A stretch of DNA of 64,000 nucleotides from a virus. The notes under the pieces are model-generated. The model worked only from the letters and a program-made list of their open reading frames with translations. It searched no databases and was not told the DNA's origin. The translations under genes and the position numbers were made by a program. The first letter of the stretch is position 1. The number at the start of each line of letters is the position of its first letter. Of the stretch, positions 31,845 through 64,000 are shown piece after piece. Location: IMG/VR virus record IMGVR_UViG_3300005617_000581. One strand, written 5' to 3'.

Positions 31845-31932
31845 GGTACACGAGGACCGCGAAATCTTCGCGGTCCTCGGCTACTTTGGCCGACAAAGTG
31901 ATATTATGAACAGGAAACGAGAGGAGAACGAG

Positions 31933-32982
31933 ATGAAGCTCAATAAGACACGCCGCTCGACGGCGACCCTGCTCGGGGTCGCGTTCGGGGACGCGATGGG
32001 ACGCAACACGGAGTTCGTCTACTCCGTCAAGGAGATCGTGCGCCGCAACCTGGTCGTGTACGACCTGCCGCGCCCGGCCCTGGTCACCGACGATACCGAC
32101 ATGACGCGCTACGTCTGTCGCGCGCTGTTGGCTGTCGACGACGTCGCTAACCTCGAACACGCGTTCGTCGAGCAGTTCATCGACTGGTACGACCAGATGG
32201 ACTCGGGCCGCAAGCCCGGCTCGTCGTGCATCCGCGCGGTGCGCAGCCTGATCGCGGACTCGAAGCACGACTGGCTGAGCAACACGGACCCGTTCGCCAA
32301 GGGATGCGGCGCCAACATGCGCGTCGCGCCGGTGGCGCTCGACACGCGCCTGGTGCCCGACTTCGAGGCCGTCGCGAACGTCGCGCAGCTCCAGTCGGCG
32401 ATCACGCACGCGCACCCGACCGCCCTGGCGGCCGCCGAACTGACGGCGTACGCGATCTGGCTGCTGCGCTGGGAGAACTTCGCGCTCGACGCGCGGCTCA
32501 TCGAGGCGCTGCTCGAACGGTGCGACTCGCAGCGCGGCGTCTACCGCGAGGACGTGCTCGGCGACCTGGCTAAGTATTGGTCCGACCGCAAGGCGATGGC
32601 TGGCTACGGTCGGCGCTGGAAGCCGGTCAACGCTAAGCGCGCGATGCAGCTCGGCTGGGACGAGGTGCTCGGCTCGATCCTCGACGTGTACGACGCGTAT
32701 ACGCTCGAGGACGTCGGCGACGACGTCTGTTCCTACACGGGAGGTGGCTGGATCGCCGAGGAGGCGCTAGCCGGTGCGCTGCTGGCGGCACTGTGGCACC
32801 CCGAAAATCCGGTCCGCGCACTGATGCGCGCCGCGACGACGTCGGGTGACTCGGATTCGCTGGCCAGCATCGCAGGCGCGCTTCACGGCGCGTGCTACGG
32901 GTACGACGCGTGGCCTCACGACTGGTACGCCCGCATCGAATTCGGCGACGAGCTCGCCGAATACGGCGAGCGCTGGGACTAG
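31933..32982 (+). CDS. ADP-ribosylglycohydrolase family protein (ARH/DraG-like)
   Basis: GVAFGDAMG, TEF and VTDDTDMT are the ARH-family Mg-binding signature. Preceded by ACGAGAGGAGAACGAG-ATG. Confidence 0.6.
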   Translation: MKLNKTRRSTATLLGVAFGDAMGRNTEFVYSVKEIVRRNLVVYDLPRPALVTDDTDMTRYVCRALLAVDDVANLEHAFVEQFIDWYDQMDSGRKPGSSCIRAVRSLIADSKHDWLSNTDPFAKGCGANMRVAPVALDTRLVPDFEAVANVAQLQSAITHAHPTALAAAELTAYAIWLLRWENFALDARLIEALLERCDSQRGVYREDVLGDLAKYWSDRKAMAGYGRRWKPVNAKRAMQLGWDEVLGSILDVYDAYTLEDVGDDVCSYTGGGWIAEEALAGALLAALWHPENPVRALMRAATTSGDSDSLASIAGALHGACYGYDAWPHDWYARIEFGDELAEYGERWD

Positions 32983-35669: not shown

Positions 35670-35670
35670 T

Positions 35671-40800: not shown

Positions 40801-41870
40801 GATCCGTTGGGCAGCCGGACCTGGCGCAGCCGCTCGGCCTAACCGTGTCGCCGAAGAAGATCAGTAAGTACGACGCGAACGCCATCAAGGCCGAGCACGG
40901 CGACACGTACCTGTTTGGGTACGACGAAAAGGAGAGCCTCTACCAGCACTTTAAGAAGAACACCAGCCTCGGCTTCATAATGCTGAATACGCAGCCGCCG
41001 ACCGTCTTTAAGGCCCTCGCCCTGGCCGTCGCCAAGTGGAACAAGGATCACCCGGCGGACCACATGAACATGCTGCAGGGCATTAAGATCATCGACGAGT
41101 TCGGCCACATACACGCGCCCGCCGGAACGCCTAAGCAGACGTTGTGGGAAACCAAGGTCGTCGACTGGCTGACGACCGCGTCCGGTAAGAAGAACGCCGC
41201 CGGGTTCATCAACTGGGCCGAGGACTACGTCAACGCGCCGACGTCGACGACATCGTCCGGTGCGGTCGTACATCTTAAGCTGCCGATCGAGATCGGTACG
41301 CCGGACGCGAGCGAAACGAACTTCCCCGCCATCAAGTCGGCCGAGGCGATGGCCATGCATAAGAAGGCGATGACCAAGCACGGCGTGTGGAACAAGATGC
41401 AGACCGACGTGATCTACGACTACACCGGATCGGGATCCGGATACATCAACGGCGCGCTTCGCAGCGGCAACACGAACGGCAGCGGCTACCAATCCGCCAT
41501 CAAGATGCAGTCCGCGATGTACCCGGCCGAAAAGAGCTTCCAGGTGTTCCGCAACACCGAGAGCGTCGGCGCCGCGTTCAACGGATACACGCTGGAAGAC
41601 TGGCAAAAGATGGTTGGACAGACGCTTCTTGAGCCGGGATTTTCGTCGACCGCGGTCGGTAAGTCGGTGTTCGGGGGAAGAAAGTTCCACCTCGAGATCG
41701 AGGTTCCGAAGGGCACGCCGGGGGCGTACGTCAAGTCCGCGTCGGCCAACGCATACGAAAACGAGTACATAATCGCGGCGGGTACGAAGTTTCGCGTCCT
41801 GAGCGTGGCTAAGAAACCCGGCATCGGCAGCACCTACGGCTTTAACATACGACTGAGGGTGGTGTCTTAG
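37809..41870 (+). CDS. Large polyvalent virion protein (1353 aa) with two ADP-ribosyltransferase domains
   Basis: ART3 has YTTSEGYQSMNAVLR, LFRGTG, FTSTSI and KTEEELILG. ART4 has YTGSGSGYINGALR, VFRNTE, FSSTAV and YENEYIIA. N-terminal HPRNPNTGEFID motif. Lower GC. Confidence 0.7.
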   Translation: MSALSDGKNALFVLVDEDEPLAAALSHKQVKAMDIAAQALKNLPGSGDWDPKLHPRNPNTGEFIDKGTSIVKISKDDIGHIIALDPSAFNDWFIKIGPHTKKSWDAQAPGTQKILKNLAAKYAAAGQGADAFDLIQVFEHVATHGKLTGIKWDAPLKLDELGQSDFFDWFHDIFVSGDSHHDKQAWNELSTKQKGEVIAEVAKLLSSPHTTDAYVKNLAKKINQLEGTPVLKVDTPPSAFVPQPAQPIGVGTVPVVGVPLKINTPFVYKTAFMNNTIIAEKLQHDPPLRIIFKNSKFHIQSQDASGTWATPSVGLTQKLGIAGPYGKPLGKGELYKAFKNDVGWTSPLNTQAHFKTPSSAPPLSAETQAVIEEIKMMSGPEFVGFMDDNYDEILAMWNTAPDEEKKVLKDKATEVLTHPKANGFVSPSDKSYLKPYQQLQEIEKQVSNMLKSTTPPKGAVYGTSTFAVPGNLNTYSNVNINQFYDSITQADWDSFDKPTKTYLQKIADQFEHDGNDEPGAALIALKNNEGPGSPWASMPTLSQMSPEISKMDSLQFKEWLDNQTAQTLSELNHKEQVHLFDVAANHTLTNYLHDVISSTASTLTDPQLSPQANPNVPSTPNVPTTPGVPGNPILQSIHENVHVNVKPIGQIGTPISDDQVGAYASITPLAAQHMQAEMLKQSGKTWTSAEINSVAKYTTSEGYQSMNAVLRNDQVRMKKFSQQALKAAGMNARDLQNAMTPTTTSLQLFRGTGAHAFGFDSDHAPSLDALKALEGKLITDRGFTSTSIVDKTGVGWDYTKKPIRIEIKVPKGAPALYVSSATPGYKTEEELILGAGTTFRIDEVRAATAAEKAKHGGALEHVVSVTVVPRANHPGPKKFPSSVASPLSAVDAAQVPQSLKPNPSTTATPGAKPKVGGTPFKFNTSTIYKVAYTPGQTVAERPGPDGDIKMVWNVKGKTGKFQLWKNDPNLNKWLLVKEYGKGDAYTAFKNDSGWFEPGSVGQPDLAQPLGLTVSPKKISKYDANAIKAEHGDTYLFGYDEKESLYQHFKKNTSLGFIMLNTQPPTVFKALALAVAKWNKDHPADHMNMLQGIKIIDEFGHIHAPAGTPKQTLWETKVVDWLTTASGKKNAAGFINWAEDYVNAPTSTTSSGAVVHLKLPIEIGTPDASETNFPAIKSAEAMAMHKKAMTKHGVWNKMQTDVIYDYTGSGSGYINGALRSGNTNGSGYQSAIKMQSAMYPAEKSFQVFRNTESVGAAFNGYTLEDWQKMVGQTLLEPGFSSTAVGKSVFGGRKFHLEIEVPKGTPGAYVKSASANAYENEYIIAAGTKFRVLSVAKKPGIGSTYGFNIRLRVVS

Positions 41871-45402: not shown

Positions 45403-47127
45403 GTGCCCGAGCACGAGCAGAACCTGAGCCTCCCCGAGGACATCACCGGCCTCGGCGTGGAGGAACTGAATCAATTCATCGCCGCTGCGAGCGCTCGGAT
45501 GTCCGAACTGGCAAACAGCGGCACCGTCGAGCTGGCGGCCGCCACGGCCGAGGCCGACGAGATGGACGCCCTGGCCGGCGAGATCGAACGCGTCGCGCTC
45601 GAGAAGGCCCGCCGCAAGCAGGTCGCCGCCGCGAACCGCGCGAAGAAGGCCGCGGCGCAGGCGCGTATCGAGGCGTCGGACGACGCGGACGAACCGGACG
45701 GCGAATCCGAGGACGACGACGAACCAGACGGCGAACCCGACGCCGAGCTCGCGGACGACGAACCCGTCACCGCGTCGAAGCGGCCGAAGGGCGGCGCTAA
45801 GACCAAGCCGCGCAGCGAGAACGCCAACTTCCGCAACCCGTCGCTCGCCGACGCGCAGCGCCAGGCGCCGACGGTTCCGACGCGCGCGCCGGAGCCCGTG
45901 TTGACGGCGTCGGCCGACATCCCGAACTTCAACCTCGGGCAGAAGCTCGACGGCATGGACGGCCTCGTCGCCGCGATGCAGGCCCGCGCCCGGACGCTTC
46001 CGATCACCAACCGAGGCGACGACGCGCCGCGCGTACCGATCGCCTCGATGGTGCGCGACTTTACGTTTAACCTCGACCCGAACGCGACGCCCGCGCAGAT
46101 CAACGAGGTTCTAACGGCCGCCGCGGACCCGGGCATCCTAACCGCCGCGGGCGGCTGGTGCTCGCCCAGCGAGATCCGGTACGACTTCTTCAACATCGTC
46201 GCCTCGGACGGCGCGATCGACCTGCCGACGGTCGGCATCAACCGCGGCGGCGTCCGCTGGCCGACCAGTCCGTCGTTCGCCGACGTCGTCCTGGGCAACG
46301 CGCTGTGGGTCTGGTCCGAGACGCAGGACATCGCGGCCGTCACGGGTACCGCGCAGTCCGGCACGAAGACCTGCGGTCGGGTTCCCTGCCCGTCGTTCAA
46401 CGAGGCGCGCCTCGGCTGCGACGGCGTCTGTCTAACGGTCGGCAACCTGACCGAGGACGCCTACCCCGAGCTGATCGCCAACCACACCAAGCTGCTGTTC
46501 GCGGCACACGCGCACAAGATGAACCGCAAGTACATCGACGCAGTTCGTACGCTGGGCGCGGGCTTCACGGTTACGAACGGCTCCGCGGGCGCGGGCGTCG
46601 TCGCCAACGTCCTCGGTGCGATCGAACTGCAGGCGCGCGACTACCGCGAGCGCTACGCGATGGCCGAGGGTTCGACGCTCGAGGTTATCGCCCCGCGCTG
46701 GCTGCGCGGCCCGATGCGCTCCGACCTACGTCGGCGCATGGGCGCGCCGACGGACACGCTGTCCGCGACCGACGCGATGTTGATGGGGCTGTTCGACGCG
46801 GCTAACGTCCGCATCCAGTGGGTCAACGACTACCAGGTCCGGACCGCGGGCTTCCCGGGCGTTCCCGGAACGCTGCCGACGGCCTGGCCGCTGACCGTCG
46901 AGATCATGATGTACGCGCCGGGCACGGTCGTCAAGGGCAACGGCCTGCGACTCGACCTAGGCATCATCCGCGACTCGGTGCTCAACGCGACCAACGACCA
47001 CACGGCCGAGTGGATGGAAGAGTGCTGGCTGATCTTCCAGCCCGGCCACGAGGTTCGTCGTCTCACGATCAGCATCTGCCCCGACGGTACGACCGGCGCC
47101 GCGGACCTGACCGAGTGCGGCGTCTAA
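45403..47127 (+). CDS. Major capsid protein (HK97-like) with N-terminal scaffold/delta domain
   Basis: GTG start. N-terminal coiled-coil and acidic repeats DDADEPDGESEDDDEPDGEPD (delta-like), then approx 300 aa capsid-like. Confidence 0.6.
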   Translation: MPEHEQNLSLPEDITGLGVEELNQFIAAASARMSELANSGTVELAAATAEADEMDALAGEIERVALEKARRKQVAAANRAKKAAAQARIEASDDADEPDGESEDDDEPDGEPDAELADDEPVTASKRPKGGAKTKPRSENANFRNPSLADAQRQAPTVPTRAPEPVLTASADIPNFNLGQKLDGMDGLVAAMQARARTLPITNRGDDAPRVPIASMVRDFTFNLDPNATPAQINEVLTAAADPGILTAAGGWCSPSEIRYDFFNIVASDGAIDLPTVGINRGGVRWPTSPSFADVVLGNALWVWSETQDIAAVTGTAQSGTKTCGRVPCPSFNEARLGCDGVCLTVGNLTEDAYPELIANHTKLLFAAHAHKMNRKYIDAVRTLGAGFTVTNGSAGAGVVANVLGAIELQARDYRERYAMAEGSTLEVIAPRWLRGPMRSDLRRRMGAPTDTLSATDAMLMGLFDAANVRIQWVNDYQVRTAGFPGVPGTLPTAWPLTVEIMMYAPGTVVKGNGLRLDLGIIRDSVLNATNDHTAEWMEECWLIFQPGHEVRRLTISICPDGTTGAADLTECGV

Positions 47128-48085: not shown

Positions 48086-48769
48086 ATGGTTGCCCAGTGC
48101 GGAGCCGCAGCACAGGGAACGGTGCTGCGTCTTGTCAAGCTCAACACCTGCGGAGCGCCTGTTACCGGCGCCTCGTCGGCCGTCGTCGTCACCGACGGCT
48201 ACATCAGCGTCCAGTCCGAGGCGCAGTACGAGGACGGCGACGCGATCCGCACCAAGAAGGCAAGTGGCCAGCTCTGCATCAACCGGACGGGACCGAATGC
48301 GTACGTCAACTCCAAGCTGACGATCGCGATGTGCGTCCTCGACCCAGACGCGAACACGCTCATCATGGGTTCACGCCTGATCACCTCCGGCTCGGTGACC
48401 GGAACCGGTACCGCGTACGGCTACAACAACGCGGCGGCGCACTACTCGCTCGAAACGTGGCAGCCCATCTCGGGTCAGGGCGCGTGCGACCCGAACACGG
48501 GTCTGCAGCGCTACGTCTACTGGGCGTGGCCGCACGTGTGGAACACTAAGCTGCTCGCGTTTACGATCGAAAACGGCGCGCTGAGCCTCAGCTACGAGGC
48601 GATAACCGACTACCCGTCGGCGCTATGGGGCGACGGGCCGGGTACGGGTACGTCGTGGCTGCCTGCCGTGATCGACACGTCGGTGTACTTCGACGACTTC
48701 CTGTGGAACATCACAACGACGGCACCGCCGACCCCGCCCGCGGCCTGCGGCGCGTTCCTGCTGACGTAG
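48086..48769 (+). CDS. Cys-rich virion structural protein (head-tail connector or tail protein)
   Basis: 227 aa containing 8 Cys. Confidence 0.35.
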   Translation: MVAQCGAAAQGTVLRLVKLNTCGAPVTGASSAVVVTDGYISVQSEAQYEDGDAIRTKKASGQLCINRTGPNAYVNSKLTIAMCVLDPDANTLIMGSRLITSGSVTGTGTAYGYNNAAAHYSLETWQPISGQGACDPNTGLQRYVYWAWPHVWNTKLLAFTIENGALSLSYEAITDYPSALWGDGPGTGTSWLPAVIDTSVYFDDFLWNITTTAPPTPPAACGAFLLT

Positions 48770-53232: not shown

Positions 53233-55754
53233 TGGGAAACTACAACCCACACGCGCCCTACATCCTCGGTCAGGAGTGGGTGCCGATCCGGCAGGCGAAC
53301 TACCTACCGGACGACAGCGCTGAACGCGGATACATCTTCCGACTGCAGCACACGACGACACCGGTTAGTGGCGCGTACTACATCGCGCAGGTACCCGACT
53401 TTCGCGTCGGTAGCGTCAATGACCTGGTCGCCGTCTACCCCGCGACGACCGCAAAACTGACCGGACCCATCAAGAAGGTAAACATCCCGGTATCGGCGAT
53501 CGCCGTCACGGGTGGATCGTTCATAACGACCGACGGGTTCCAGGCACTCAACAACCCGTCCGACGACAAGGCGATCATATTTAACAACTCGGGCTTCTCG
53601 GGAAACGACTTCATCACGTTTCAGTTCGACATGGACGGATACTCGCAGCAGCTGTTCGGCAAGCGCATCCTCGACGTGAAGATCCGCTACTCGATGAAGG
53701 GTATTCCGAGCGAGATCTCCAGCACCGGGCCCATCGCGAGCGGTGTGTTTATGTACGTTGGGTTCGCGAAGAACCTAAGCGACACGTTCTTCTACGGGAC
53801 GCCTGAGGTAGCGCCGATCGTCTCCTTCCAGTTCAACCAACCACACGAGGTCATCAACTCGTTCAGTCTTAAAAACGTCAACCCGTTTTGGGACGCCGCC
53901 GCGACCAACTGGACGCAGCGCGACGTCTATCCGTGGCGGTATCAGGAGCTCAGCCGGTTCCGCGCTACCGAGGGTCCATCCACGAGGATGTGCGTCGCGT
54001 TTCAGAACAGCTTGACCCTGGCGACGACCGCGGCGCGTATGTACTTCATGGACATGGAGGTCACGTACTGTGAGGAGACGCGGCTCGCGTACGGCGGCCG
54101 TCGTACGGCGTACGTCAACGGAACGCCGAACAGCAACGACGCGTACACTGTGGGCCCACAGTTCGTTAGGCTCCGCGACACCAGCTTTAACCTCGGCGCG
54201 TCGCTAACTCCTAACGAATACCTCGTTACGCTCGTTCACACCGACTCTAACTTTGCGAACCTGGACGGTGCCCCGTCGGTCAACGCCGTCCGCGAGTTGT
54301 ACCAGCTACCGACGCAGCGCGGCGTCGAGCTCGACCAGACGCTGGTCGTCAACGACGAGTTCGTGCAGGAGGACACGGACGTACTAACGCACATAACGCT
54401 GCATACCGCGGCCGGTGTCGTCACCGGAGTTCACGCGTACGGCCAGGTCTACGGCGCACCCGTCTACGGGTCGACCAGCCCGATCCAGGAAATCGAGGAC
54501 GACCCCGTCGGATCGGCTGCGCTATTTCCGCAGGTTCGGTTCTACGCGCGTCGCTTCGGCGCGACGACGGTTCCGCTGACGCTCGTCGACGTCGCGACCG
54601 GGTTGTCTACGGCGAGCATCTCGGTGGCCGACTTCGACGCGCTACCCGAGATCGTCGACGGCTGGCGCGAGGTCAACCTACGCTTTGCTACGGCGCCGTC
54701 GTTCGCGACGGCGGCGGGCGACGTCGACTGGAAGTGGACCGCCGCGGGCGAGCTAGCTGGAAACCAGTGGCAGGTCCTAGCGGCGTCCGGTCCGAGCCCC
54801 GTGGGAACGCAGTCGATCGGCAAGGCGACGTACTACGCGCCGCAGGGCGACACGGTCGACCTGACGTGGTTGTCGCCCAGCGTCTCGGGCGCGGCCGAGG
54901 ACACCCTGGGCGACGCTGTATTGATCTTCTCGCAGGATCCGATGCCCGTCTCCGGGTTCGCGCAGACGCGGACGAGCCAGTCGCTGACGTACGCGCAGCG
55001 CTGCGGCGTCACCAGCCCGAACGTGCCGACGGCGCTCAGCTACGTCAACCTGACGTGGTCCGCGCAGGGATTCCTACCGGTGACCGGCTTCGGCCAGTAT
55101 GAGCTGGAGCGCTACGACGCCGTCGACGGGGCCTGGCGGCAGATCATGTCGGCGTCGACGCCGTCCGTCACCGGGTTCGCCGACTACGAGGCCCGCGTCG
55201 GCGTCGCGACGTACTACCGGATCCGGACATGCAACCTGCTCGACTTCTGTGGACCGTGGATCACCGGCGGCCCGATCACCGTCACCGGAAGCGGCGTCAC
55301 GATCGGCGGCGACGGCAACTCACTACTTATGTTCTCTAGCAACCGACAGCCGTCGCTGAACGTCGCGTACACCATGTCGTTCGATACCGAGGTGATCGAG
55401 GCGTTCGCGCTGCCCGAGGCCGACGAGGTACAGCTGCAGCGTATGTACGGTCGCGACTACTTCACGGCGTTCTTCCCAACCGAACGGGGAGGTGAACAGT
55501 TCTCAAGATTGATCTTGGTGAACGCGGGCGCGATCTCGCCGCCGTCGCTACCCGACGCGATCGGCATGCGCGACCTGGCGCACGCGGCGCTGCGCTACGT
55601 CTGCGTTCGCGACGAGCTGGGTAACCGATGGTTCGCGAACGTGCGCGTACCCGAGGACGCCGTCCGTATGAACCGCGAGGTCTACGTCGTACGCGTCGAC
55701 ATCACGAAGCTGACCGATACACCCGATCCGATCAACCCGGGGGTAGTGACGTGA
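53232..55754 (+). CDS. Minor tail protein (840 aa)
   Basis: First large ORF after the tape measure, with ATGA overlap. Confidence 0.55.
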   Translation: MGNYNPHAPYILGQEWVPIRQANYLPDDSAERGYIFRLQHTTTPVSGAYYIAQVPDFRVGSVNDLVAVYPATTAKLTGPIKKVNIPVSAIAVTGGSFITTDGFQALNNPSDDKAIIFNNSGFSGNDFITFQFDMDGYSQQLFGKRILDVKIRYSMKGIPSEISSTGPIASGVFMYVGFAKNLSDTFFYGTPEVAPIVSFQFNQPHEVINSFSLKNVNPFWDAAATNWTQRDVYPWRYQELSRFRATEGPSTRMCVAFQNSLTLATTAARMYFMDMEVTYCEETRLAYGGRRTAYVNGTPNSNDAYTVGPQFVRLRDTSFNLGASLTPNEYLVTLVHTDSNFANLDGAPSVNAVRELYQLPTQRGVELDQTLVVNDEFVQEDTDVLTHITLHTAAGVVTGVHAYGQVYGAPVYGSTSPIQEIEDDPVGSAALFPQVRFYARRFGATTVPLTLVDVATGLSTASISVADFDALPEIVDGWREVNLRFATAPSFATAAGDVDWKWTAAGELAGNQWQVLAASGPSPVGTQSIGKATYYAPQGDTVDLTWLSPSVSGAAEDTLGDAVLIFSQDPMPVSGFAQTRTSQSLTYAQRCGVTSPNVPTALSYVNLTWSAQGFLPVTGFGQYELERYDAVDGAWRQIMSASTPSVTGFADYEARVGVATYYRIRTCNLLDFCGPWITGGPITVTGSGVTIGGDGNSLLMFSSNRQPSLNVAYTMSFDTEVIEAFALPEADEVQLQRMYGRDYFTAFFPTERGGEQFSRLILVNAGAISPPSLPDAIGMRDLAHAALRYVCVRDELGNRWFANVRVPEDAVRMNREVYVVRVDITKLTDTPDPINPGVVT

Positions 55755-56845
55755 GCCGCTGGGCCCGAACGCTGCGAACGGCGACGGCGAACGCAACCCT
55801 GGACCTGCCGCGATCGGTCGGGCAGCGCTCGACGACGTTCAGGTTCTCGATCGTCGACGTCGTCACCGGCTACCGGGTCGAGGTAAACCCGGTGCGTAGT
55901 CCAGCGCCGCAGTGGTCACACGATACGGCGCGGATGATTAAGCGTCAGATCACCGGGCTCAACCTCGGCGTCGCCGATACTGCGCGGTTCAGTAGCGTCT
56001 CGTCGCGGCTCGAGATCGAGATGATCGTCGCGGGCACGTCGTATCCGATGGGACGCTACGTTCCCTACGCCGACCAGCGGCTGCCGTCGACCGGCGGAAC
56101 CCGGTCGATCGACAGCTTCTACGACGAGATGTACATCGTCGACCAGGAGATCACCGAGGGCTTCGGTATCGGCATCGTCACGTCGGGCAGCATCGAGTTT
56201 GGAATCACCGACCTGCTGACGCCGCTGCCGATCACGTTCGACGTCGAACCGTCGACGTACGCCAACGTCTCGTCATGGGGAATCGGGACGCACCGGGGGC
56301 AGATCTGCGAACAGCTCGCGCTCGACGGCGACTACATGTCCCCGTGGTTCGACAACGACGGCGTCATGCGCTTCGTCCGGACGTTCGATCCGATGGATGA
56401 GGTTCCGACGCTGGACTACGACACGGACGGCGGCGTCATACGCAGCGAGATCGTGACGAGCAACACGCTGGTTGATGCGCCGAACAGGTTCGTCGTCATC
56501 TCCAACGGCAGTTCGGCGATTGGCGACGACGCCGAACCCGTCGCGGGAATCTACGACATACCCGATTCGGCGCCACACTCGATCAGCAACCGAGGTGGGT
56601 TCGTCATCCAGAGCACCGATACGCGGCAGCTTCAGTCCAACGCGCAGGCGACGGCGATCGCGCGCAGCCTAGGTATGCGGCACACGCTGGTCGAACAGCT
56701 ACAGCTGCAGACGGCCGCCGATCCGCGCTACGACTCGTATGACGTCGTTCGCTGGCAGGGCGTCAACTGGCTGGAGATCTCGCGCTCGATGCAGCTGACG
56801 AACGGCGCTCCGATGCAGCACATCTTTAGGAGAACCTACCGATGA
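55751..56845 (+). CDS. Minor tail protein
   Basis: In-frame GTG 55751 overlapping the upstream stop. About 364 aa. Confidence 0.5.
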   Translation: MSRWARTLRTATANATLDLPRSVGQRSTTFRFSIVDVVTGYRVEVNPVRSPAPQWSHDTARMIKRQITGLNLGVADTARFSSVSSRLEIEMIVAGTSYPMGRYVPYADQRLPSTGGTRSIDSFYDEMYIVDQEITEGFGIGIVTSGSIEFGITDLLTPLPITFDVEPSTYANVSSWGIGTHRGQICEQLALDGDYMSPWFDNDGVMRFVRTFDPMDEVPTLDYDTDGGVIRSEIVTSNTLVDAPNRFVVISNGSSAIGDDAEPVAGIYDIPDSAPHSISNRGGFVIQSTDTRQLQSNAQATAIARSLGMRHTLVEQLQLQTAADPRYDSYDVVRWQGVNWLEISRSMQLTNGAPMQHIFRRTYR

Positions 56846-57519
56846 CGTCACCTAGAACTCCGTCGATCGACGACGTCGCCGAGGCGATCCGCATCACGCA
56901 CACCCAGGGACAAGATCCGGACCGGTGGGGACTAAGCTTCGGCAGCGTACAGGATCCGAACAACGCGGACATACCTAACGTCATCCTCGACGGCGACACG
57001 GCCTTAATTCCCGCGATCTCACTCATCGGTGTTAACCTCGCCACCGGCGCGCGGGTATCCGTACTCAGCATTCCACCGAGCGGTAACTACATCATAGCCG
57101 AGCAGATGACGCGCGCGGTTAACGTCTTTTCGAGCGTCGTCTTTACGACGACGAGCACGTCATACACAGCCGTCGGCGCGGTGTTCTGCGGCGTCGCGTT
57201 CGTAGCACCACCTAGCGGGCGTGTGACGATTCACTGGTCGGCCGAGGTCCAAGGTTCCACTACCGCTACGGTCTGCCTCGTTAGCCCGCAGGTAGCCACC
57301 GGTAGCGTCGTCGGCTCGGGCTCGGTCGTCACCGGGTGGGCCGCCAACGACAACCGGCAGGTTCGCGCCGACGTGACGACGCCGGTTCGTACGGCGGACA
57401 TGGACATCGTGGACGGCCTAGTGCCGCGACAGATCTACAACGTCGCGCTGTATCACCGCGTCGTCTCGGGTACCGGAACCATCGGACGGCGGCGCATCGT
57501 CGTCTCACCCGTCGGTTAA
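56842..57519 (+). CDS. Minor tail protein
   Basis: 225 aa, Gly/Ser/Thr/Val-rich beta-type protein. ATGA overlap. Confidence 0.5.
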   Translation: MTSPRTPSIDDVAEAIRITHTQGQDPDRWGLSFGSVQDPNNADIPNVILDGDTALIPAISLIGVNLATGARVSVLSIPPSGNYIIAEQMTRAVNVFSSVVFTTTSTSYTAVGAVFCGVAFVAPPSGRVTIHWSAEVQGSTTATVCLVSPQVATGSVVGSGSVVTGWAANDNRQVRADVTTPVRTADMDIVDGLVPRQIYNVALYHRVVSGTGTIGRRRIVVSPVG

Positions 57520-57534
57520 TAGTACAGTAATCAC

Positions 57535-58233
57535 GTGGCCACCGGTGTTAAAACCACGCGCTACGCGGTGATCCCAACACACAATCGGATCGAACAGCTC
57601 ACCGCGCTGATACGTACGCTCAAGGCGCAGAACTGCGACCACATAATCATCATCGACAACGCGTCGGATCCACCGGTATCCGAGCTCTGGCTACGAACGC
57701 AGACCGACGCGCCTACCGTCGTCGTGCGCGACGAGGAACAGCCGCCGAACCTGTATCGAATGTGGAACCGCGGGTTCGGTCTAGTTGAGATGACGGCGCG
57801 GACGTTTCGTGAGGTTACCTGGGACGTCGTCGTTCTCAACGACGACGCCGAGCTTCCCGACGGCTGGCTCGACTACGTCACGTCGGGCCTGCGTCAGGTG
57901 GAATCGGCCGTCGTGGCCTGCACCGATCCGTACGGAACGCTTCATGGGGCGCTGCTTAAGACCCAGCCCGACGGCAACATCCAGACGCGCATGTGCCCGT
58001 GGGCGTTCGTCGTCCGCGGCGAGCGCGGACTACGCGCCGACGAATCGCTGCGCTGGTGGTGGGGCGATACGGACTTCGACTGGCAAGCCTGCTCTGCCGG
58101 AGGTGTGCTGCTACTACCCGGCTACACAACGAAAAACACGTGCGCCAACTCGACGACGCACGGGGCGCTGGCCGAGCAGGCCGGACGCGATGGCCAGACG
58201 TTCGCACAGAAGTGGGGATGGCGGCCGTGGTAG
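57535..58233 (+). CDS. Glycosyltransferase family 2 (GT-A)
   Basis: YAVIPTHNRIEQL...IIIIDNASD...VVLNDDAE has the GT2 N-terminal signature and DxD. Confidence 0.6.
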   Translation: MATGVKTTRYAVIPTHNRIEQLTALIRTLKAQNCDHIIIIDNASDPPVSELWLRTQTDAPTVVVRDEEQPPNLYRMWNRGFGLVEMTARTFREVTWDVVVLNDDAELPDGWLDYVTSGLRQVESAVVACTDPYGTLHGALLKTQPDGNIQTRMCPWAFVVRGERGLRADESLRWWWGDTDFDWQACSAGGVLLLPGYTTKNTCANSTTHGALAEQAGRDGQTFAQKWGWRPW

Positions 58234-58859
58234 TCGCGTATGGCTGCTGCGTCGGCTCGTGGGAGAAGTATCATGCCTACGTCGAGCCGTGGATCTTCGC
58301 CGAAACGATCGGGCGTCCGATCGTTTTGATCGAAAATCCGCCGTCGATCGGCGTGGCATACAACCAGATGCTCGACTCGTATCGGAGTTGGGCCGTCGAC
58401 GCCGTCGTGCTGCTACACGATGACCTAGAGATCACCGATCCACGAGCCGAGGTTAAGTTCCTCGAGGCGCTAGCCACGGACCCGGAGATCGCGCTGGTCG
58501 GCGTCGCCGGTGGGCACGGCGTCGGCTCGCTCGCGTGGTGGAACGCCAACACTGTCGGTCACCAGCTGATCGACTCTGGCATGCTGGACTTCGGCGAGCG
58601 CACCGGCTACGTCGACCTGCTGGAGGGCAGCATCCTCGTCTTCTCACCCTGGGCTGTCGAGAACCTTCGGTTCGACGAGGACTTCGCCGGATTTCACGGT
58701 TACGACGACGTCGCGATGATCGCGCACTCGTACGGCATGCGCGCCTACGTCACCGACGTCGATACACACCACCACACGCAGCTCGGCTTTAAGTCCGAGG
58801 AGAGCGCGCGGGCGTGGTTCGCGGCCGACGAACGATTCCGTCAAAAGTGGGGATTCTAG
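58218..58859 (+). CDS. Glycosyltransferase-like protein (GT-A-like, HDD motif)
   Basis: VVLLHDDLEI is DxD-like. 16-nt overlap with the upstream gene. Confidence 0.4.
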   Translation: MAAVVVAYGCCVGSWEKYHAYVEPWIFAETIGRPIVLIENPPSIGVAYNQMLDSYRSWAVDAVVLLHDDLEITDPRAEVKFLEALATDPEIALVGVAGGHGVGSLAWWNANTVGHQLIDSGMLDFGERTGYVDLLEGSILVFSPWAVENLRFDEDFAGFHGYDDVAMIAHSYGMRAYVTDVDTHHHTQLGFKSEESARAWFAADERFRQKWGF

Positions 58860-60065
58860 ATGCGCCGAACCAGCTGCAGCGCCTGCGGCTACAACGACCT
58901 ACATACGTTCCTCGACCTCGGGCTGTCGCCGATCGCGGACGCGTACACTAAGAGCCCCAACGAACTGGTCGAGATGCACCCGCTTCAGCTGGCGGTCTGC
59001 ACCGGCTGCTGGCTCGTCCAGCTGCTCGAGGTCGTCGACCCAAAGACGCTGTTCGGGACGGGCTACTCGTTCTACTCGTCGGCGTCGGCGCCGCTGTCCA
59101 ACTACCACGCGGACTACGCAGCCGACGTGCTCTTCCGCTACGACGGCCTAGCTCGCCGCGGCGTCGTCGAGATCGGCTGCAACGACGGGGACATGCTGCG
59201 CTGGTTCGCGCAGCGCGGCTGCCCGAGCATTGGCGTCGACCCGGCGACCGGGCCGGTCGACGTCGCGCGACGGCGCGGACTCAACGTCATGGAAACCGAG
59301 TTCACCTTCGACGTCGCCGAGTCGATCGCCGCCGAGGGTGGTAAGCCGGGGATCATCATCGCCAACCACGTCCTAGCGCACGTCGCCGACGTAGCCGAGG
59401 TACTGCGCGGCGTCGCGGCGTTACTGGCCGTCGACGGCGTCGCGTTCGTCGAGGTCCAGTACCTACCCGACCTGCTGACGGGTAACGCGTTCGACCTGGT
59501 CTACCACGAGCACCGCAACTTCTTCTCGTTGACGAGCCTGGAGAAGGCCGCGAAGCGCTGGGGTCTACACGTCGCCGACGCACGGCTTACCGATCGCCAG
59601 GGAGGATCGCTACGCGTCGAGCTACGCCGTACGCGCGGCGCCCTCAACCTCATCGAGAACATACGCGCGTCCGAGTCGTGGCTATCGCAACGCAGCTCGT
59701 ACGACGGCTTTCAGGGGCGGATCGAACGCGTTCGGACGCGACTACGCGACATGTTGATCACATCGGCGACCGGTCACGTCGCCGGATACGGCGCACCCGC
59801 GAAGGCGACGACGCTGCTTAACTTCTGCGGCATCGATTCCGAACAGGTCGGCTTCACGATCGATACGACGGCCGCTAAGCAGGGCCGCTTCGTCCCGGGT
59901 ACCGGCATTCCGATTCGACCGCCTGATGTCATCGAGTCGCGGCGGGTAGATACATTTCTACTACTGGCGTGGAACTACGCGCCGGAGATCATGCGCCGCG
60001 AACTCGAATTCACGCACAACGGCGGACGCTGGATCGTTCCGATCCCGGTTCCGACGCTGTTCTAG
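58860..60065 (+). CDS. SAM-dependent methyltransferase with N-terminal Zn-ribbon (sugar C-/O-methyltransferase-like family)
   Basis: CSACGYNDLHTFLDLGLSPIADAY...CTGCWLVQL zinc ribbon is followed by a class-I MTase core VVEIGCNDG. Confidence 0.55.
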   Translation: MRRTSCSACGYNDLHTFLDLGLSPIADAYTKSPNELVEMHPLQLAVCTGCWLVQLLEVVDPKTLFGTGYSFYSSASAPLSNYHADYAADVLFRYDGLARRGVVEIGCNDGDMLRWFAQRGCPSIGVDPATGPVDVARRRGLNVMETEFTFDVAESIAAEGGKPGIIIANHVLAHVADVAEVLRGVAALLAVDGVAFVEVQYLPDLLTGNAFDLVYHEHRNFFSLTSLEKAAKRWGLHVADARLTDRQGGSLRVELRRTRGALNLIENIRASESWLSQRSSYDGFQGRIERVRTRLRDMLITSATGHVAGYGAPAKATTLLNFCGIDSEQVGFTIDTTAAKQGRFVPGTGIPIRPPDVIESRRVDTFLLLAWNYAPEIMRRELEFTHNGGRWIVPIPVPTLF

Positions 60066-60073
60066 GAGGACGA

Positions 60074-60586
60074 TTGAACCTGAACCTCGGCTGCGGCGAA
60101 CAGTACGCACCCGGCTGGGTCAACGTCGACCACGAGGGCAGTCCGCACCGGCGTGACCAGACCGTCGACCTGACGGGCGAGCTGCCCTGGCCGCAGGGCA
60201 GCGTCGACGCCGTCTACGCGGGTCACCTACTGGAGCACCTAACACTCGACGAGTGTCGCGGCCTCCTGGTCCGGCTTCGGACGTGCGTCAAGCCCGCGGG
60301 TATGATCATGGTGGTAGGTCCCGACGTCGAGGTCGCCGCGCGGATGGAACGCGACGGCGCGACGCTGGAGGTTCCGCTCGACCAGCTGCGCTTCGGCGCC
60401 GGGCGCTGGCTCGGCGACGTGCACCGCTGGGAGTGCACCCTCGCCGGGCTTACCGTTCTGCTGATCGAATCCGGTTGGTCGAAGGTCACGCACTTCGGTA
60501 TCGACGAGGTCGGCGCGTTCTGGCCGGTCGCGTTCCGCGGGCCGCGCTGGCAGGTCGCCGTGCGGGCGGAGGTACCGGTAGCGTGA
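60074..60586 (+). CDS. Class I SAM-dependent methyltransferase
   Basis: In-frame TTG 60074 after AGGAGG. LNLGCGEQ (motif I) and VDAVYAGHLLEHL (Methyltransf_11-like). Confidence 0.55.
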   Translation: MNLNLGCGEQYAPGWVNVDHEGSPHRRDQTVDLTGELPWPQGSVDAVYAGHLLEHLTLDECRGLLVRLRTCVKPAGMIMVVGPDVEVAARMERDGATLEVPLDQLRFGAGRWLGDVHRWECTLAGLTVLLIESGWSKVTHFGIDEVGAFWPVAFRGPRWQVAVRAEVPVA

Positions 60587-61155
60587 AGATGGACGTCACC
60601 GTCGCGATGCCGGCGATCCCGCCGCGGGTCGGCGGACAGCTGTTCCTGGACGCCGTCAACAGCGTACGTAGCCAGACGCTGCCTCCCGAGGGCGGCATCT
60701 CGTGCGCCCTGGACGTCGACCGCAACGGGGCCGCGGTAACCCGCCAGCGCGCCCTGGACGGCGTCCGGACGACGTGGACGGCGTTCCTGGACGACGACGA
60801 CTACTTCTACCCGAACCACCTCGAGACGCTGAAGAACCTGGCGATCGATACCGGCGCGGACTTCGTGTACTCGTGGTTCGACGGCAACAACCCGTTCCCG
60901 ATGCACCGCGGCCGCCAGTTCAACCGCGATGAGCCCCACCATACGACGATGACCGTCATGGTCCGGACGGCCCTGGCGCGCGAGGCCGGGTTCCTGCTGC
61001 CGAACGGCCCGCTTCACCAGGACTGGATGGGCGAGGACTGGCAGTTCATCCTGCGCTGCGCCGACGCGGGCGCGATCTTCGCGGGTTCGGCCGAGATAAC
61101 GTGGCACTACCGCGTCCACGGCACCAACACCAGCGGCCTACCGACGAGGTGGTGA
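60583..61155 (+). CDS. Glycosyltransferase family 2-like protein (paralogue A)
   Basis: AFLDDDDYFYPNHLETL and EDWQF are shared with the next gene. Confidence 0.5.
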   Translation: MKMDVTVAMPAIPPRVGGQLFLDAVNSVRSQTLPPEGGISCALDVDRNGAAVTRQRALDGVRTTWTAFLDDDDYFYPNHLETLKNLAIDTGADFVYSWFDGNNPFPMHRGRQFNRDEPHHTTMTVMVRTALAREAGFLLPNGPLHQDWMGEDWQFILRCADAGAIFAGSAEITWHYRVHGTNTSGLPTRW

Positions 61156-61157
61156 CG

Positions 61158-61745
61158 ATGCTCGACAGCGTGACGGTGATCGTTCCGCACATTCCGACGC
61201 GGGTCGCCGAGCTGGAACGCGCGCTCGCGAGCGTCTGGCGACAGACGCACCAACCCGACGCGGTCATCGTCCAGACGGACAATCGGCGCGTCGGCTCGGC
61301 GCTGACGCGCAACAGGGCGCTGTGCTACAACCTGTCGACCAACTGGGTCGCGTTCCTGGACGACGACGATGAACTGCTGCCGAACCACCTCGAGGCGCTG
61401 CTGAGCCGCGCCGCGCACGACCTTCCGGGGGTCGTCTACTCCGGCTGTCGCGTCGTCGACAGGTTCGGCTTCGAGGTTCCACAGCGTGAGGAGTGGGGGC
61501 GCTTTGGGCAGGAGTTCGACGCGGACCTGCTGCGGCGGCGTTCGTACATACCGGTGACGAGCCTGGTGAGCGTCTACGTCGCGCAGAAGGCGTTCTTCGA
61601 AGCACCGGCCGGCAGCGACTACGACGACTGGGGCTTCTACCTGCGTGCCCTGGACAACGGCGCGCGGTTTGTGCACGTCCCCGAGGTGACGTGGATCTGG
61701 CACCACCACGGGCACAACACGAGTGGGAGGCCCGATCGATGGTAG
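61158..61745 (+). CDS. Glycosyltransferase family 2-like protein (paralogue B)
   Basis: VIVPHIPTR...AFLDDDDELLPNHLEALL...DDWGFYLR parallels paralogue A. Confidence 0.5.
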   Translation: MLDSVTVIVPHIPTRVAELERALASVWRQTHQPDAVIVQTDNRRVGSALTRNRALCYNLSTNWVAFLDDDDELLPNHLEALLSRAAHDLPGVVYSGCRVVDRFGFEVPQREEWGRFGQEFDADLLRRRSYIPVTSLVSVYVAQKAFFEAPAGSDYDDWGFYLRALDNGARFVHVPEVTWIWHHHGHNTSGRPDRW

Positions 61746-61990
61746 AGATTCCCGAGGAACGTAAGGGTGACGGTCCGTGTCAAAACTGTGCACAGGAATA
61801 CTTCGACTGGTCAGCCGATAATGCGTTCTGGAATAATGTCATAGCGGAGTGGAAGGGTGTTGACTGGACCGGAGGGGATCCTGGAGCGATTCTCTGCATA
61901 ACCTGCTTTGGCGTCATCGCGCATAATCTAGGTTACGACATGATCGGCTTTCGTATGACGCCTGAGTGGCGTTGGCAGCGACGTCTATGA
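61739..61990 (+). CDS. Hypothetical small protein (83 aa), lower GC
   Basis: In-frame ATG 61739. CQNCAQEY...ILCITCFG. Confidence 0.35.
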   Translation: MVEIPEERKGDGPCQNCAQEYFDWSADNAFWNNVIAEWKGVDWTGGDPGAILCITCFGVIAHNLGYDMIGFRMTPEWRWQRRL

Positions 61991-63063
61991 AGGTCTACGT
62001 CTTTCCCGCGGACCACCACGGCTGTGGACACTACCGAATGATCTGGCCCGCCGAGGCGCTGATCGCGCAGGGTCACGACGTGCACGTCGTCGCGCCGGAC
62101 GAGCGCGATCGAATGCTCCAGGGCGCGATGCGTGGCGACAAGATGGTCGAGGTCAACATTCCGCGCGACGCCGACGTCATCGTGCTGCAGCGCGTGGTAC
62201 ACCGCTACATCGTCCAGGCGATCCAGCTGATCCGTAAGAAGCGCGTCGCCGTGATCGTCGACATCGACGACGACCTTACGTGCATCCATCCCGCGAACCC
62301 GGCGTTCACGCTCTTCCACCCGAACAGCGGCGATCCCAACTACTCGTGGCAGAATACGCTTCACGCCGCGGAGGCCGCGACGATAACGACCGTCTCGACG
62401 CCCGCGCTGGTTCAGCGCTACGGACGCCGCGGCAACGCGCACGTTCTCTACAACGGCGTTCCGGCGCGAATGCTGGACGTCCCCCGGGTAGATTCCGATG
62501 TCATCGGCTGGGCGGGTTCGGTACCGAGTCACCCGACCGACCTGCAGGCGATGGGACCCGCGCCCGCGCAGCTGATCCAGGCCGGCTGCCGCTGGAGGAT
62601 CGCGGGTCCGATCGTCGGGGTCCACGAGGCGCTCGGCGTTCCTACGACGACCAACATTGAGTCGACGGGCGTGATCCCGAACATCTACCACTGGCCACTC
62701 GCCGTTGCCAGTCTAGGCATCGGCGTCGCGCCCCTGGCGGACACGCGGTTCAACTCCGCGAAGTCGTGGCTGAAGATGGCCGAATACGCCGCGGCGGGGG
62801 TTCCCTGCGTCGGCTCGCCGCGCGCCGAATACGTCCGGCTCAACAAGCTCGGCGTCGGCTGGCTAGCTAAGACGCCGAACGACTGGAAGGCTAAGCTGCG
62901 AACGCTGGTCGAATCGCAGACCGCGCGTGAGGAGCTGTCCGAACGGGGGCGGTTCGTCATGCAGGAGTACACGATCGAGAGGACGGCGTGGCGCTGGATG
63001 GAGACGTGGCAGCGCGCGCTGTCGCTCGAACGTTCGACGCCCCTCAAGCGCGTCGAGGTCTAA
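61987..63063 (+). CDS. Glycosyltransferase, GT-B fold (GT4-like)
   Basis: Start placed at ATG 61987 (MKVYVFP), overlapping the upstream stop. N-domain FPADHHGCGHYRMIWPAEAL, and the C-domain has an E..E..G-type donor-binding region. Confidence 0.5.
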   Translation: MKVYVFPADHHGCGHYRMIWPAEALIAQGHDVHVVAPDERDRMLQGAMRGDKMVEVNIPRDADVIVLQRVVHRYIVQAIQLIRKKRVAVIVDIDDDLTCIHPANPAFTLFHPNSGDPNYSWQNTLHAAEAATITTVSTPALVQRYGRRGNAHVLYNGVPARMLDVPRVDSDVIGWAGSVPSHPTDLQAMGPAPAQLIQAGCRWRIAGPIVGVHEALGVPTTTNIESTGVIPNIYHWPLAVASLGIGVAPLADTRFNSAKSWLKMAEYAAAGVPCVGSPRAEYVRLNKLGVGWLAKTPNDWKAKLRTLVESQTAREELSERGRFVMQEYTIERTAWRWMETWQRALSLERSTPLKRVEV

Positions 63064-63071
63064 AAAGACGA

Positions 63072-63110
63072 AAAAGCCGCACGTCGTTCTACTACGACGT
63101 GCGGCTTCTA
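63072..63110. terminator. Bidirectional intrinsic terminator between convergent genes
   Basis: 12-bp stem GCCGCACGTCGT / ACGACGTGCGGC with a 6-nt loop, flanked by AAAAAGACGAAAAA upstream and TTCT downstream. Confidence 0.6.
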
Positions 63111-63136: not shown

Positions 63137-63445
63137 CTACGTTAGCCACGATAGGCCACACGAGACGCAGACCTCGGAGTATCCGTCCGAGAACAACGTC
63201 CGGTTGGCGCAGCCGGGACACGAGCGTCGCTCGCCGCCGCGCTTCAGCGCGCGACGCTCGTCGTCCGTCGTGCCGCCCCAGATGCCGTAGACCTCGGAGA
63301 ACGACAGCGCGAAGTCGAGGCAGCTCGGCTGAACGCGGCACCGCGAGCAGTACGCCTTCGCCGTTTCGACGTGGTCGGGGTCCTCGAAGATCTCGGGGTT
63401 CGCGCCCGCGCAGAGCGCTCGCTTCTGCCACAGGGGCTCCTGCAT
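63137..63445 (-). CDS. whiB: WhiB-family transcriptional regulator
   Basis: Four Cys residues (ALCAG, CSRC, CLDFAL) and the GIWGG turn, followed by a basic tail. It is transcribed convergently with the structural arm. Confidence 0.7.
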   Translation of the reverse strand: MQEPLWQKRALCAGANPEIFEDPDHVETAKAYCSRCRVQPSCLDFALSFSEVYGIWGGTTDDERRALKRGGERRSCPGCANRTLFSDGYSEVCVSCGLSWLT

Positions 63446-63456
63446 CGCCGATCCCC

Positions 63457-64000
63457 CTAGACGCCCGATAGCAGCAGTCCTGCTGTTCGATTGATGCGCT
63501 TGTGGGTTTCACCCTCGAGCGCGTTGATGAACCGCGACTCGGGCGAGCCACCCGGGCGGTACCAGTCCATGTACTCGGAGACCGCGTTGACGAGGCCCCA
63601 CGCCGTACCGGCGTAGGCGACCGTCGGCGACGACTGCCACAGCGACATGATTGTGGCGAGCCGTTCCTCCCACTGGAGCTGCGTCCGCGGCGTCTTCCCC
63701 TTGGGCTGAGGAATGACGATCTTTAGCACCTCGCGGGCCTTGGTCGCCGTCACGCTGCGATCGGCGAGGCGGTCGGCGAGCTCCTCGAAGCGCTTGACGT
63801 AGAGGCCGATGTTCTTGAGCGACGTCTTAGCCTCATCCAGCTTTGCCTTCATCGTGCTGGTGTGCTTGATCGCCCAGCGGTACTTCACGTCGTTGGTGAA
63901 CGAACGCAGCGTCAGTTGGTTCATGCAGCGGCCGCGCAGCATCATGACCGAGACCTCGACGGCGCGCGAGCAGTCGTGGCTGGTGCGCAGCACCGCGAAG
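63457..64000 (-). CDS. Hypothetical protein, 5' end beyond window (partial)
   Basis: The minus-strand ORF is open to the window edge. Confidence 0.4.
   Translation of the reverse strand, partial: FAVLRTSHDCSRAVEVSVMMLRGRCMNQLTLRSFTNDVKYRWAIKHTSTMKAKLDEAKTSLKNIGLYVKRFEELADRLADRSVTATKAREVLKIVIPQPKGKTPRTQLQWEERLATIMSLWQSSPTVAYAGTAWGLVNAVSEYMDWYRPGGSPESRFINALEGETHKRINRTAGLLLSGV

Follow-up and report, generated by a model that had tools for sequence, protein, structure and literature searches.

The 64,000-nucleotide (nt) stretch of IMG/VR virus record IMGVR_UViG_3300005617_000581 (here called the window) carries a cluster of eight genes, g1 to g8, at 57535-63063, and the most likely role of this cluster is to make, in the cytoplasm and at a late stage of infection, a glycan that is methylated and partly C-branched. 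The module belongs to the core of a large family of soil phages with genomes of ~65 kb. With slightly less than even confidence, we tentatively favor the reading that g1 to g8 form a late glycan synthesis module that O-glycosylates virion proteins before or during assembly. In support of this reading, the cluster is tightly packed behind the tail genes, all 37 related clusters with recognizable virion genes nearby share their strand, and in some lineages the module takes the slot between portal and capsid genes that the glycosylation cluster of mycobacteriophage Corndog occupies. In addition, Arthrobacter phage Atuin has the g5/g6 and g8 families without a hydroxymethylase of the thymidylate synthase (TS) type, a separate GT-B enzyme (2071-3429) can account for any DNA glycosylation, and the combination of a sugar nucleotide-tailoring enzyme with five glycosyltransferases fits a complex surface glycan. 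Systems of this kind are already known; what is new is the use of different enzyme families, a phage-borne 3-C-methyltransferase, and the wide spread of the module in uncultured soil phages.

The eight genes are co-oriented on the plus strand and nearly free of gaps, with -16 to +15 nt between neighbors. They encode four GT-A glycosyltransferases (g1, g2, g5, and g6), one GT4-type GT-B glycosyltransferase (g8), two methyltransferases (g3 and g4), and one Cys-rich open reading frame (ORF) product (g7). The genes called in an earlier note on this DNA all exist as called or within a few bases of the call, and its account of the content, namely, five glycosyltransferases and two S-adenosylmethionine (SAM) methyltransferases, including a sugar C-methyltransferase that has a zinc domain, holds. 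So does the placement directly after the minor tail genes, as the cluster begins 15 nt past the last of them (mt3; 56842-57519, plus strand). The product of mt3 weakly matches the C terminus of the minor tail protein family phrog_7565 (E = 0.005), and its homologs occupy the same position in related loci. Downstream, a hairpin terminator (63072-63109) with a 16-bp stem, nine G-C pairs, and T/A runs on both sides closes the rightward late operon as well as the convergent WhiB/DUF932 operon. Consensus scans of the plus strand from the tail genes to g8 revealed no convincing promoter-like or strong terminator-like site. None of the cluster proteins contains a transmembrane segment, and the cluster encodes no flippase, which argues for cytoplasmic chemistry. 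All of the cluster proteins are acidic except that of g8.

By their profile matches, g1, g2, g5, and g6 are GT-A/GT2 glycosyltransferases, and the predicted structure of g6 agrees with this assignment. The curated Pfam gathering cutoffs are 23.3 bits for PF00535, 27 bits for PF13712, and 21.2 bits for PF08241. The g1 product (57535-58233; 232 amino acids [aa]) matches PF00535 with an E value of 7.7e-6 (26.4 bits), is 39% identical to Streptomyces phage Zuko gp108, annotated as "glycosyltransferase," and is found in most of the related clusters. The g2 product (58218-58859; 213 aa), a GT-A-like glycosyltransferase that had been listed in the earlier note as a weak fifth candidate, passes the threshold for PF13712 (Glyco_tranf_2_5; E = 4.9e-8; 33.4 bits). 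The small GT-A glycosyltransferases g5 (60583-61155; 190 aa) and g6 (61158-61745; 195 aa) are paralogs with 42% identity, matching PF00535 (E = 1.4e-7 and 2.6e-9, respectively) and phrog_14775 (E = 3e-34 and 2.7e-34). Zuko gp106 and Atuin gp169 are ~40% identical to g5 and 32 to 40% identical to g6, and a DDDD motif is invariant across the g5/g6 family. The AlphaFold model of g6 (predicted local distance difference test [pLDDT] score of 90) has a GT-A fold, with RmlT, TarP, K4CP, and AvpGT as the top PDB matches (E = 5e-12 to 1e-10), and superposes on RmlT, TarP, and K4CP with query-normalized TM-scores of 0.70 to 0.79. Che8 gp108 is one of many matches of the g6 model among viral models. The g8 product (61987-63063; 358 aa; isoelectric point of 8.8) matches phrog_7162 (E = 1.8e-36) and is 36% identical to Atuin gp165 and 27% identical to Zuko gp5. 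It scores ~22 bits against the Pfam GT-B families, below their cutoffs, and its assignment as a GT-B/GT4 glycosyltransferase comes from its AlphaFold model (pLDDT of 93), which has a GT-B fold. The Foldseek matches of this model include MshA and PimA (5e-14 to 2e-13), followed by BshA and PglA (to E = 1e-11) and SdgB (to E = 1e-10), a methylmannose-polysaccharide mannosyltransferase, and TarM. The T4 β-glucosyltransferase (beta-GT) is not among its top 50 structural matches.

The g3 product (58860-60065; 401 aa) is predicted to be a nucleoside diphosphate (NDP)-hexose 3-C-methyltransferase of the TylC3/TcaB9/MtmC/KijD1 type. It matches PF08421 (4e-17), the SAM-binding PF13489 (3e-21), and PF08484 (3e-41), and phmmer gives full-length matches to MtmC (4rv9; 6e-76), TcaB9 (3ndi; 1e-70), and KijD1 (5t64; 2e-67). 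The alignment with MtmC runs end to end (residues 4 to 400). Both CxxC pairs are kept (the cysteines of CSACG...CTGCW), and VYHEH pairs with IYHEH of MtmC. Thus, g3 and the antibiotic pathway enzymes agree in their three domains, in the four zinc cysteines, and in the Y-x-E-H motif. Unlike those enzymes, g3 is encoded by a phage and presumably makes a building block for a glycan, not a sugar for an antibiotic, and no 2,3- or 4,6-dehydratase, aminotransferase, or ketoreductase gene lies alongside it, so the substrate must come from the host. An enzyme of this type would work on a nucleotide sugar and not on a finished glycan, which implies a C-branched deoxysugar. Homologs of g3 are present in only seven phage records, and no actinophage isolate is among them at the search threshold. 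Since g2 always travels with g3, g2 is probably the transferase for the g3 product. The g4 product (60074-60586; ~170 aa) is a small class I SAM methyltransferase (PF08241, 6.6e-5, 23.9 bits; phrog_6636 methyltransferase, 2e-5), the start of which is better set at TTG 60074, with a GGAGGA ribosome-binding site upstream and the motif I sequence LNLGCG downstream. Between g6 and g8, g7 (61739-61990) encodes an 83-aa accessory protein that is Cys rich, with two CxxC pairs, and has no match in Pfam or PHROGs. A g7 homolog was found only in the related locus L005 (48% identity), and the gene is missing in L004, where g6 abuts g8.

Related loci carry L-number labels here, with L001 being Arthrobacter phage Atuin and L086 being Streptomyces phage Zuko. 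A scan of IMG/VR with g6 identified 141 relatives, of which 80 loci were kept, and all neighborhood counts rest on those 80. When the tail tube, TS-like, PolA, and minor tail proteins were each used alone as scan queries, only 6 to 13 close relatives per protein were obtained. A large protein collection contains more than 1,000 homologs for each of the families of g6 and g8, nearly all of them metagenomic and many on contigs of ~65 to 68 kb. Throughout the closest family, the minor tail genes precede the cluster and the convergent WhiB/DUF932 pair follows it, and a cluster is present in all six additional relatives that were fetched via the minor tail gene and have enough downstream sequence. 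In other lineages, the cluster is flanked by the portal and major capsid genes (L034 and L050) or placed between PolA and portal, just upstream of the latter (L128 to L132). Recognizable virion genes occur within 10 kb in 37 of the 80 related loci, always on the same strand (37/37); replication genes occur within that distance in only 7 of the 80. The usual core across relatives consists of g1, g5/g6, and g8, and the g2-g3-g4 segment is gained or lost as one unit. The cluster content thus varies among relatives in the manner of a polysaccharide (O-antigen) locus. In some relatives (among L004 to L083 and L119 to L124), the cluster opens with a second g8-like gene or includes the g5/g6 paralog in three copies.

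The nearest functional parallel is with the mycobacteriophages Corndog, Che8, and Myrna, the virions of which are reported to be glycosylated by such gene clusters (Freeman et al. 2023, Cell Host Microbe 31:1216, as summarized in PMC12363180 and PMC11256854); the cluster of Che8 is gp108 to gp110. Che8 gp110 and Corndog gp38 are stated to be essential (PMC12363180, PMC11256854, and PMC13313380). Corndog gp35 to gp38, a methyltransferase and three glycosyltransferases, sit between the portal/protease and capsid genes. As in Corndog, several glycosyltransferases and a methyltransferase are encoded by the phage here, clustered and co-oriented with the virion structural operon; the module relatives L034 and L050 occupy the same portal-to-capsid slot as gp35 to gp38; and small GT-A enzymes of ~200 aa resemble those of Corndog, Che8, and Myrna in size. 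The window differs from Corndog and Che8 in having more enzymes (five glycosyltransferases and two methyltransferases), in having an NDP-sugar 3-C-methyltransferase, and in its presumed host, a soil actinobacterium, for which antibody shielding is not the selective force. The likeness to Che8 and Corndog, as an analogy, is one of kind and position and not of family. The comparison with Che8, Corndog, and Myrna made in the earlier note is therefore legitimate for the type of cluster and, through L034 and L050, for its slot, and it does not extend to homology beyond the generic GT2 fold. The altered antibody recognition offered there as a rationale is not applicable to a soil phage.

The only cultured phages with homologs of g1, g5/g6, and g8 are the Streptomyces phages Zuko and KimJongPhill and the Arthrobacter phages Atuin, Racecar, Mimi, and Talia1610. 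These are true homologs, of g1 (Zuko gp108), g5/g6 (Zuko gp106 and Atuin gp169), and g8 (Atuin gp165 and Zuko gp5), and they are accompanied by a methyltransferase or nucleotidyltransferase. The arrangement differs from that of the window, as the genes in these phages are split into two groups beside a UDP-glucose dehydrogenase gene instead of following the tail genes; those of Zuko lie at the genome ends and those of Atuin among DNA/RNA metabolism genes. The g2, g3, and g4 genes are lacking in these phages. In Atuin (L001 11487-12494), a DUF932-like protein (gp167) and a band-7 protein are encoded between the g8-like and g5/g6-like glycosyltransferases. In the window, the DUF932 protein and WhiB (63137-63993, minus strand) face the end of the cluster, as in all close relatives, and a band-7/SPFH protein is encoded at 26775-27647; the vicinity of glycosyltransferase and DUF932 genes is a recurring one.

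Whereas enzyme families, operon organization, conservation, and synteny are shown by the analysis above, the choice of acceptor, the sequence of steps, and the nature of the sugars are proposals. In the scheme that we propose, g1 to g8 would be cotranscribed with the tail genes and their products would act in the cytoplasm of the infected actinobacterial cell. Host enzymes would supply thymidine diphosphate (TDP)-4-keto-6-deoxyhexose and other NDP-sugars, to which supply a phage nucleotidylyltransferase (516-1208, minus strand) may add. The g3 enzyme would put a methyl branch on C3 of a keto-sugar nucleotide, g2 would transfer the resulting branched sugar, and g4 would methylate a sugar hydroxyl. 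The predicted retaining GT4 enzyme g8, together with g1 and g5/g6, may start and extend the core oligosaccharide. Each phage would show its own glycan, because gene content varies between relatives as it does in O-antigen loci.

The main alternative, overlooked in the earlier note and a real possibility, is that the glycan is placed on DNA: cytosine would be replaced by 5-hydroxymethylcytosine (5hmC), and some or all of g1 to g8 would add a mono- to oligosaccharide to it before packaging, guarding the genome against modification-dependent and classical restriction. The starting point is a T4-like set of minus-strand genes in the left arm, which encode a MazG-type nucleoside triphosphate pyrophosphatase (67-525), a deoxycytidine monophosphate (dCMP) deaminase (9837-10343), a TS-fold enzyme (10340-11191), and a 355-aa P-loop kinase, the gene of which adjoins the TS-fold gene and lies beside PolA within the 9837-12159 block. 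The TS-fold enzyme scores 57 bits against ThyA models with cutoffs above 300. Its best solved relatives are the MilA cytidine monophosphate 5-hydroxymethylases; the catalytic Cys is present, and Asp180, invariant in the family, aligns with the Asn of real thymidylate synthases and the Asp of MilA. This position, equivalent to Escherichia coli ThyA Asn177 and T4 gp42 Asp179, determines the specificity for uracil versus cytosine. Given the Asp at this position and the MilA relatives, the phage probably makes 5-hydroxymethyl- or 5-methyl-dCMP, as T4 or XP12 does. The window showed neither ThyX nor an ordinary ThyA, and the kinase/TS-like/deaminase/PolA block is conserved in the family. In Zuko (L086 41555-45479, genes 73 to 77, and gene 48), ThyX is accompanied by a second, divergent "thymidylate synthase" (gene 76), which appears by manual alignment to carry the cytosine-type Asp and adjoins MazG, kinase, and dCMP deaminase genes; this suggests that Zuko may also have modified cytosine.

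Several of these features speak for glycosylated DNA. The left arm set is T4-like, its TS-fold enzyme has MilA relatives and the Asp, and the block persists through the family; Zuko combines the g1, g5/g6, and g8 families with a divergent TS-like gene that apparently has the same Asp. Phage enzymes of the GT-A and GT-B types are on record as attaching one to three sugars to 5hmC, the top PDB match reported for the GT-A enzymes being TarP (Pyle et al., bioRxiv 10.1101/2023.12.21.572611), and g6 matches TarP as well; g8 is basic, and if the presumed circular junction is crossed, only ~14 kb separate the cluster from the TS-like gene. The window also resembles T4 and the phages of Pyle et al. in that GT-A and GT-B enzymes occur in a phage that carries a pyrimidine-modifying enzyme with a TS fold; the GT-A members in the latter set, like those here, resemble TarP, and more than one glycosyltransferase can act in series. 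Unlike in those systems, g1 to g8 are not beside the TS-like gene: within the window, they lie more than 46 kb from it, on the opposite strand, inside the late structural operon. The families of the cluster also occur without such a gene. The whole genome of Atuin, read through and scanned with hidden Markov models (HMMs), encodes the g5/g6 and g8 families with ThyX only; its replication module is collinear with that of the window, and no TS-like gene was detected in the complete genome at HMM sensitivity. Similarly, the cluster-bearing L128 to L132 have no gene for a TS-like enzyme, deaminase, or kinase within 10 kb on either side of PolA, which is partial evidence, about half of the genome being seen. 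The absence of T4 beta-GT from the top structural matches of g8 may point the same way, and the TS-like enzyme could be a dCMP methylase, with no need for a glycosyltransferase. We know of no DNA glycan so far described that needs a sugar C-methyltransferase, and a set of five glycosyltransferases, a 3-C-methyltransferase, and one further methyltransferase is larger than any DNA glycan described would require.

A sixth glycosyltransferase candidate bears on the same question. The minus-strand gene at 2071-3429 encodes a divergent, 452-aa GT-B-like protein; 16 of 32 members of its family match PF13524 (best E = 4e-7), and the protein itself has no match of its own. It lies near MazG and the sugar-1-phosphate nucleotidylyltransferase (516-1208, minus strand) in the replication operon, with a 292-aa protein (1196-2074, minus strand) encoded between the nucleotidylyltransferase and the GT-B-like protein. 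Searches of the PDB with phmmer and profiles of the 2071-3429 and 1196-2074 proteins were empty, and hhalign of the 2071-3429 family against the g8 family gave no significant match overall. The 516-3429 trio, conserved in L004, L005, and L008 and absent from Atuin and Zuko, is a candidate set of DNA glycosylation genes, and if the DNA is glycosylated, the GT-B-like protein beside the nucleotidylyltransferase is better placed for this than g1 to g8. On balance, we regard glycosylation of DNA by the cluster as unlikely. A combined arrangement, which we rate as doubtful and only marginally less so, would have two systems in one phage: an early, DNA-directed one (the TS-like dCMP hydroxymethylase, 2071-3429, and the nucleotidylyltransferase) and a late one in which g1 to g8 make a strain-variable virion glycan with a 3-C-methyl branched sugar. 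In a bolder version under the same doubt, g1 to g8 would build a branched, methylated oligosaccharide on hydroxymethylcytosine DNA, an undescribed class of hypermodification.

It is also conceivable, and in our view improbable, that the enzymes act on an acceptor outside the virion, modifying a cell wall glycopolymer of the host (teichoic acid-like, arabinogalactan linker, or lipoglycan) or a small molecule. Such activity could block superinfection, stop progeny from adsorbing to debris, or inactivate an anti-phage metabolite made by the host. The best solved matches of g6 include the wall teichoic acid enzymes RmlT and TarP, the latter encoded by a prophage, and the nucleoside glycosyltransferase AvpGT; the g8 matches PimA, MshA, BshA, and TarM act on lipids, small molecules, or teichoic acids; and PHROGs places these families in the category "moron, auxiliary metabolic gene and host takeover." The phage nevertheless looks lytic in the window, with no integrase or repressor noticed among the ORFs scanned, and expression at the end of the tail operon would be too late for wall remodeling. 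The cluster encodes no membrane-anchored glycosyltransferase, flippase, or lipid carrier enzyme, and the module is core to the family and located among virion genes, without the placement of a moron close to an integration or immunity region. We set aside a role in a prophage or in seroconversion, since the window looks like a nearly complete and circularly permuted genome of the lytic type, with no integrase noticed among the ORFs scanned.

The following points weigh against glycosylation of the virion, the reading that we favor. The glycosyltransferases are nearer replication genes in five related loci, and the homologous enzymes of Atuin lie among DNA/RNA metabolism genes and not among virion genes; the late timing of g1 to g8 is deduced only from gene order. 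The 5hmC that this genome is predicted to contain is the glycosyltransferase substrate in T-even phages, and the fold of g6 resembles TarP, as do the GT-A enzymes acting on DNA, as well as many generic GT2 enzymes. When all cluster proteins were compared by BLASTP with Che8 gp108 to gp111 and Corndog gp34 to gp41, only marginal or short matches were obtained, the best being g6 with Che8 gp108 (47 aa; E = 6e-5) and then with gp110 (E = 0.09). In hhalign comparisons with gp110 and gp38, the g5/g6 family reached a probability of 0.7% and g1 reached 2.7%, so that no homology to the essential enzymes is apparent. Finally, no specific glycosylation acceptor signal was found in the virion proteins. 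The capsid protein ends in ...DGTTGAADLTECGV and has no C-terminal extension. The tail tube protein (48086-48769) ends in NITTTAPPTPPAACGAFLLT, a Thr/Pro-rich end that is conserved in the close family: NITTT(A/P)PPTPP..CGAFLLT is kept in all 12 close relatives with a complete C terminus (L087 to L098), with NITTTAPPTPP as the form in the window. This C terminus was rejected as a specific acceptor signature, as ends of the same kind occur in Smarties, Twister6, and Baddon. More distant lineages that bear the cluster have a tail tube protein without the Thr run. The description of the minor tail protein as Ser/Thr rich is correct in that its Ser-plus-Thr content of 19.6% is slightly higher, yet this is only marginally above its neighbors, namely, the major tail protein (18.1%) and the preceding tail protein (17.5%). 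The capsid C termini and the minor tail protein, which had been put forward as acceptors, are thus not borne out as such: there is no specific signal, no extension of the capsid protein, and only a marginal excess of Ser and Thr.

To our knowledge, the phages with demonstrated virion glycosylation are a few mycobacteriophages only. In the present case, a nonhomologous and richer gene set looks core to a very abundant family of uncultured soil phages. Should the virion be the site of its glycans, glycosylated particles would be common among environmental actinophages as a diversifying trait, with uses unrelated to antibodies, such as stabilizing the particle, adhesion, or shielding from host receptors and proteases. 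The predicted phage-borne sugar 3-C-methyltransferase indicates that phages may tailor nucleotide sugars themselves. Sequence-based annotation cannot at present distinguish DNA-directed from protein-directed phage glycosyltransferases, and a genome that combines probable modified cytosine with a sixth glycosyltransferase is a good system for separating the two. Zuko would be a convenient isolate for establishing whether or not these glycosyltransferase families are linked to DNA modification.

The 64-kb window, with a G+C content of 65%, is almost the entire genome of a lytic-type actinobacteriophage, and the WhiB gene points to an actinobacterial host. The left arm, with leftward genes, is the replication arm and encodes an SNF2 helicase, PolA, a PD-(D/E)XK nuclease, and an AAA_24 ATPase. 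The right arm, with rightward genes, encodes a primase-polymerase, the large terminase subunit, the portal, a MuF/ADP-ribosyltransferase fusion, the capsid (phrog_777), the tail tube (phrog_792), and the tape measure protein, followed by three minor tail genes. In L004, L005, and L008, the genes past DUF932 run on into the leftmost genes of the window (MazG, the nucleotidyltransferase, 1196-2074, and 2071-3429), and this joining of right-end to left-end genes indicates a circularly permuted genome of ~65 to 67 kb. A megablast search of the cluster against 50,697 phage records gave no match, indicating that there is no close cultured relative among them. IMG/VR holds fragments that are 95 to 100% identical to the window (L099, L104, L112, and L118). 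No tRNA genes were found in the window.

For the second minor tail gene, the listed start (ATG 55628) overlaps the preceding gene by 127 nt, and GTG 55751, which overlaps the upstream stop (GTGA), is the likelier start in the region 55628-55754. Two large proteins of the head region (among 31906-32982, 35542-37812, and 37809-41870) contain domains resembling ADP-ribosyltransferase (ART) toxins. One of them is fused to a MuF/head morphogenesis domain and the other is 1,353 aa long, and an ADP-ribosylglycohydrolase is encoded a few kilobases upstream; this set looks like an injected ART effector plus antidote. The major capsid protein (45403-47127) has 574 aa, and its homologs in cultured phages align only from about residue 145; the N-terminal part is acidic and Ala/Glu rich and looks like a fused scaffold (delta-like) domain. 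The capsid, tail tube, adaptor, and phrog_810 proteins are unusually rich in Cys, often near their ends.

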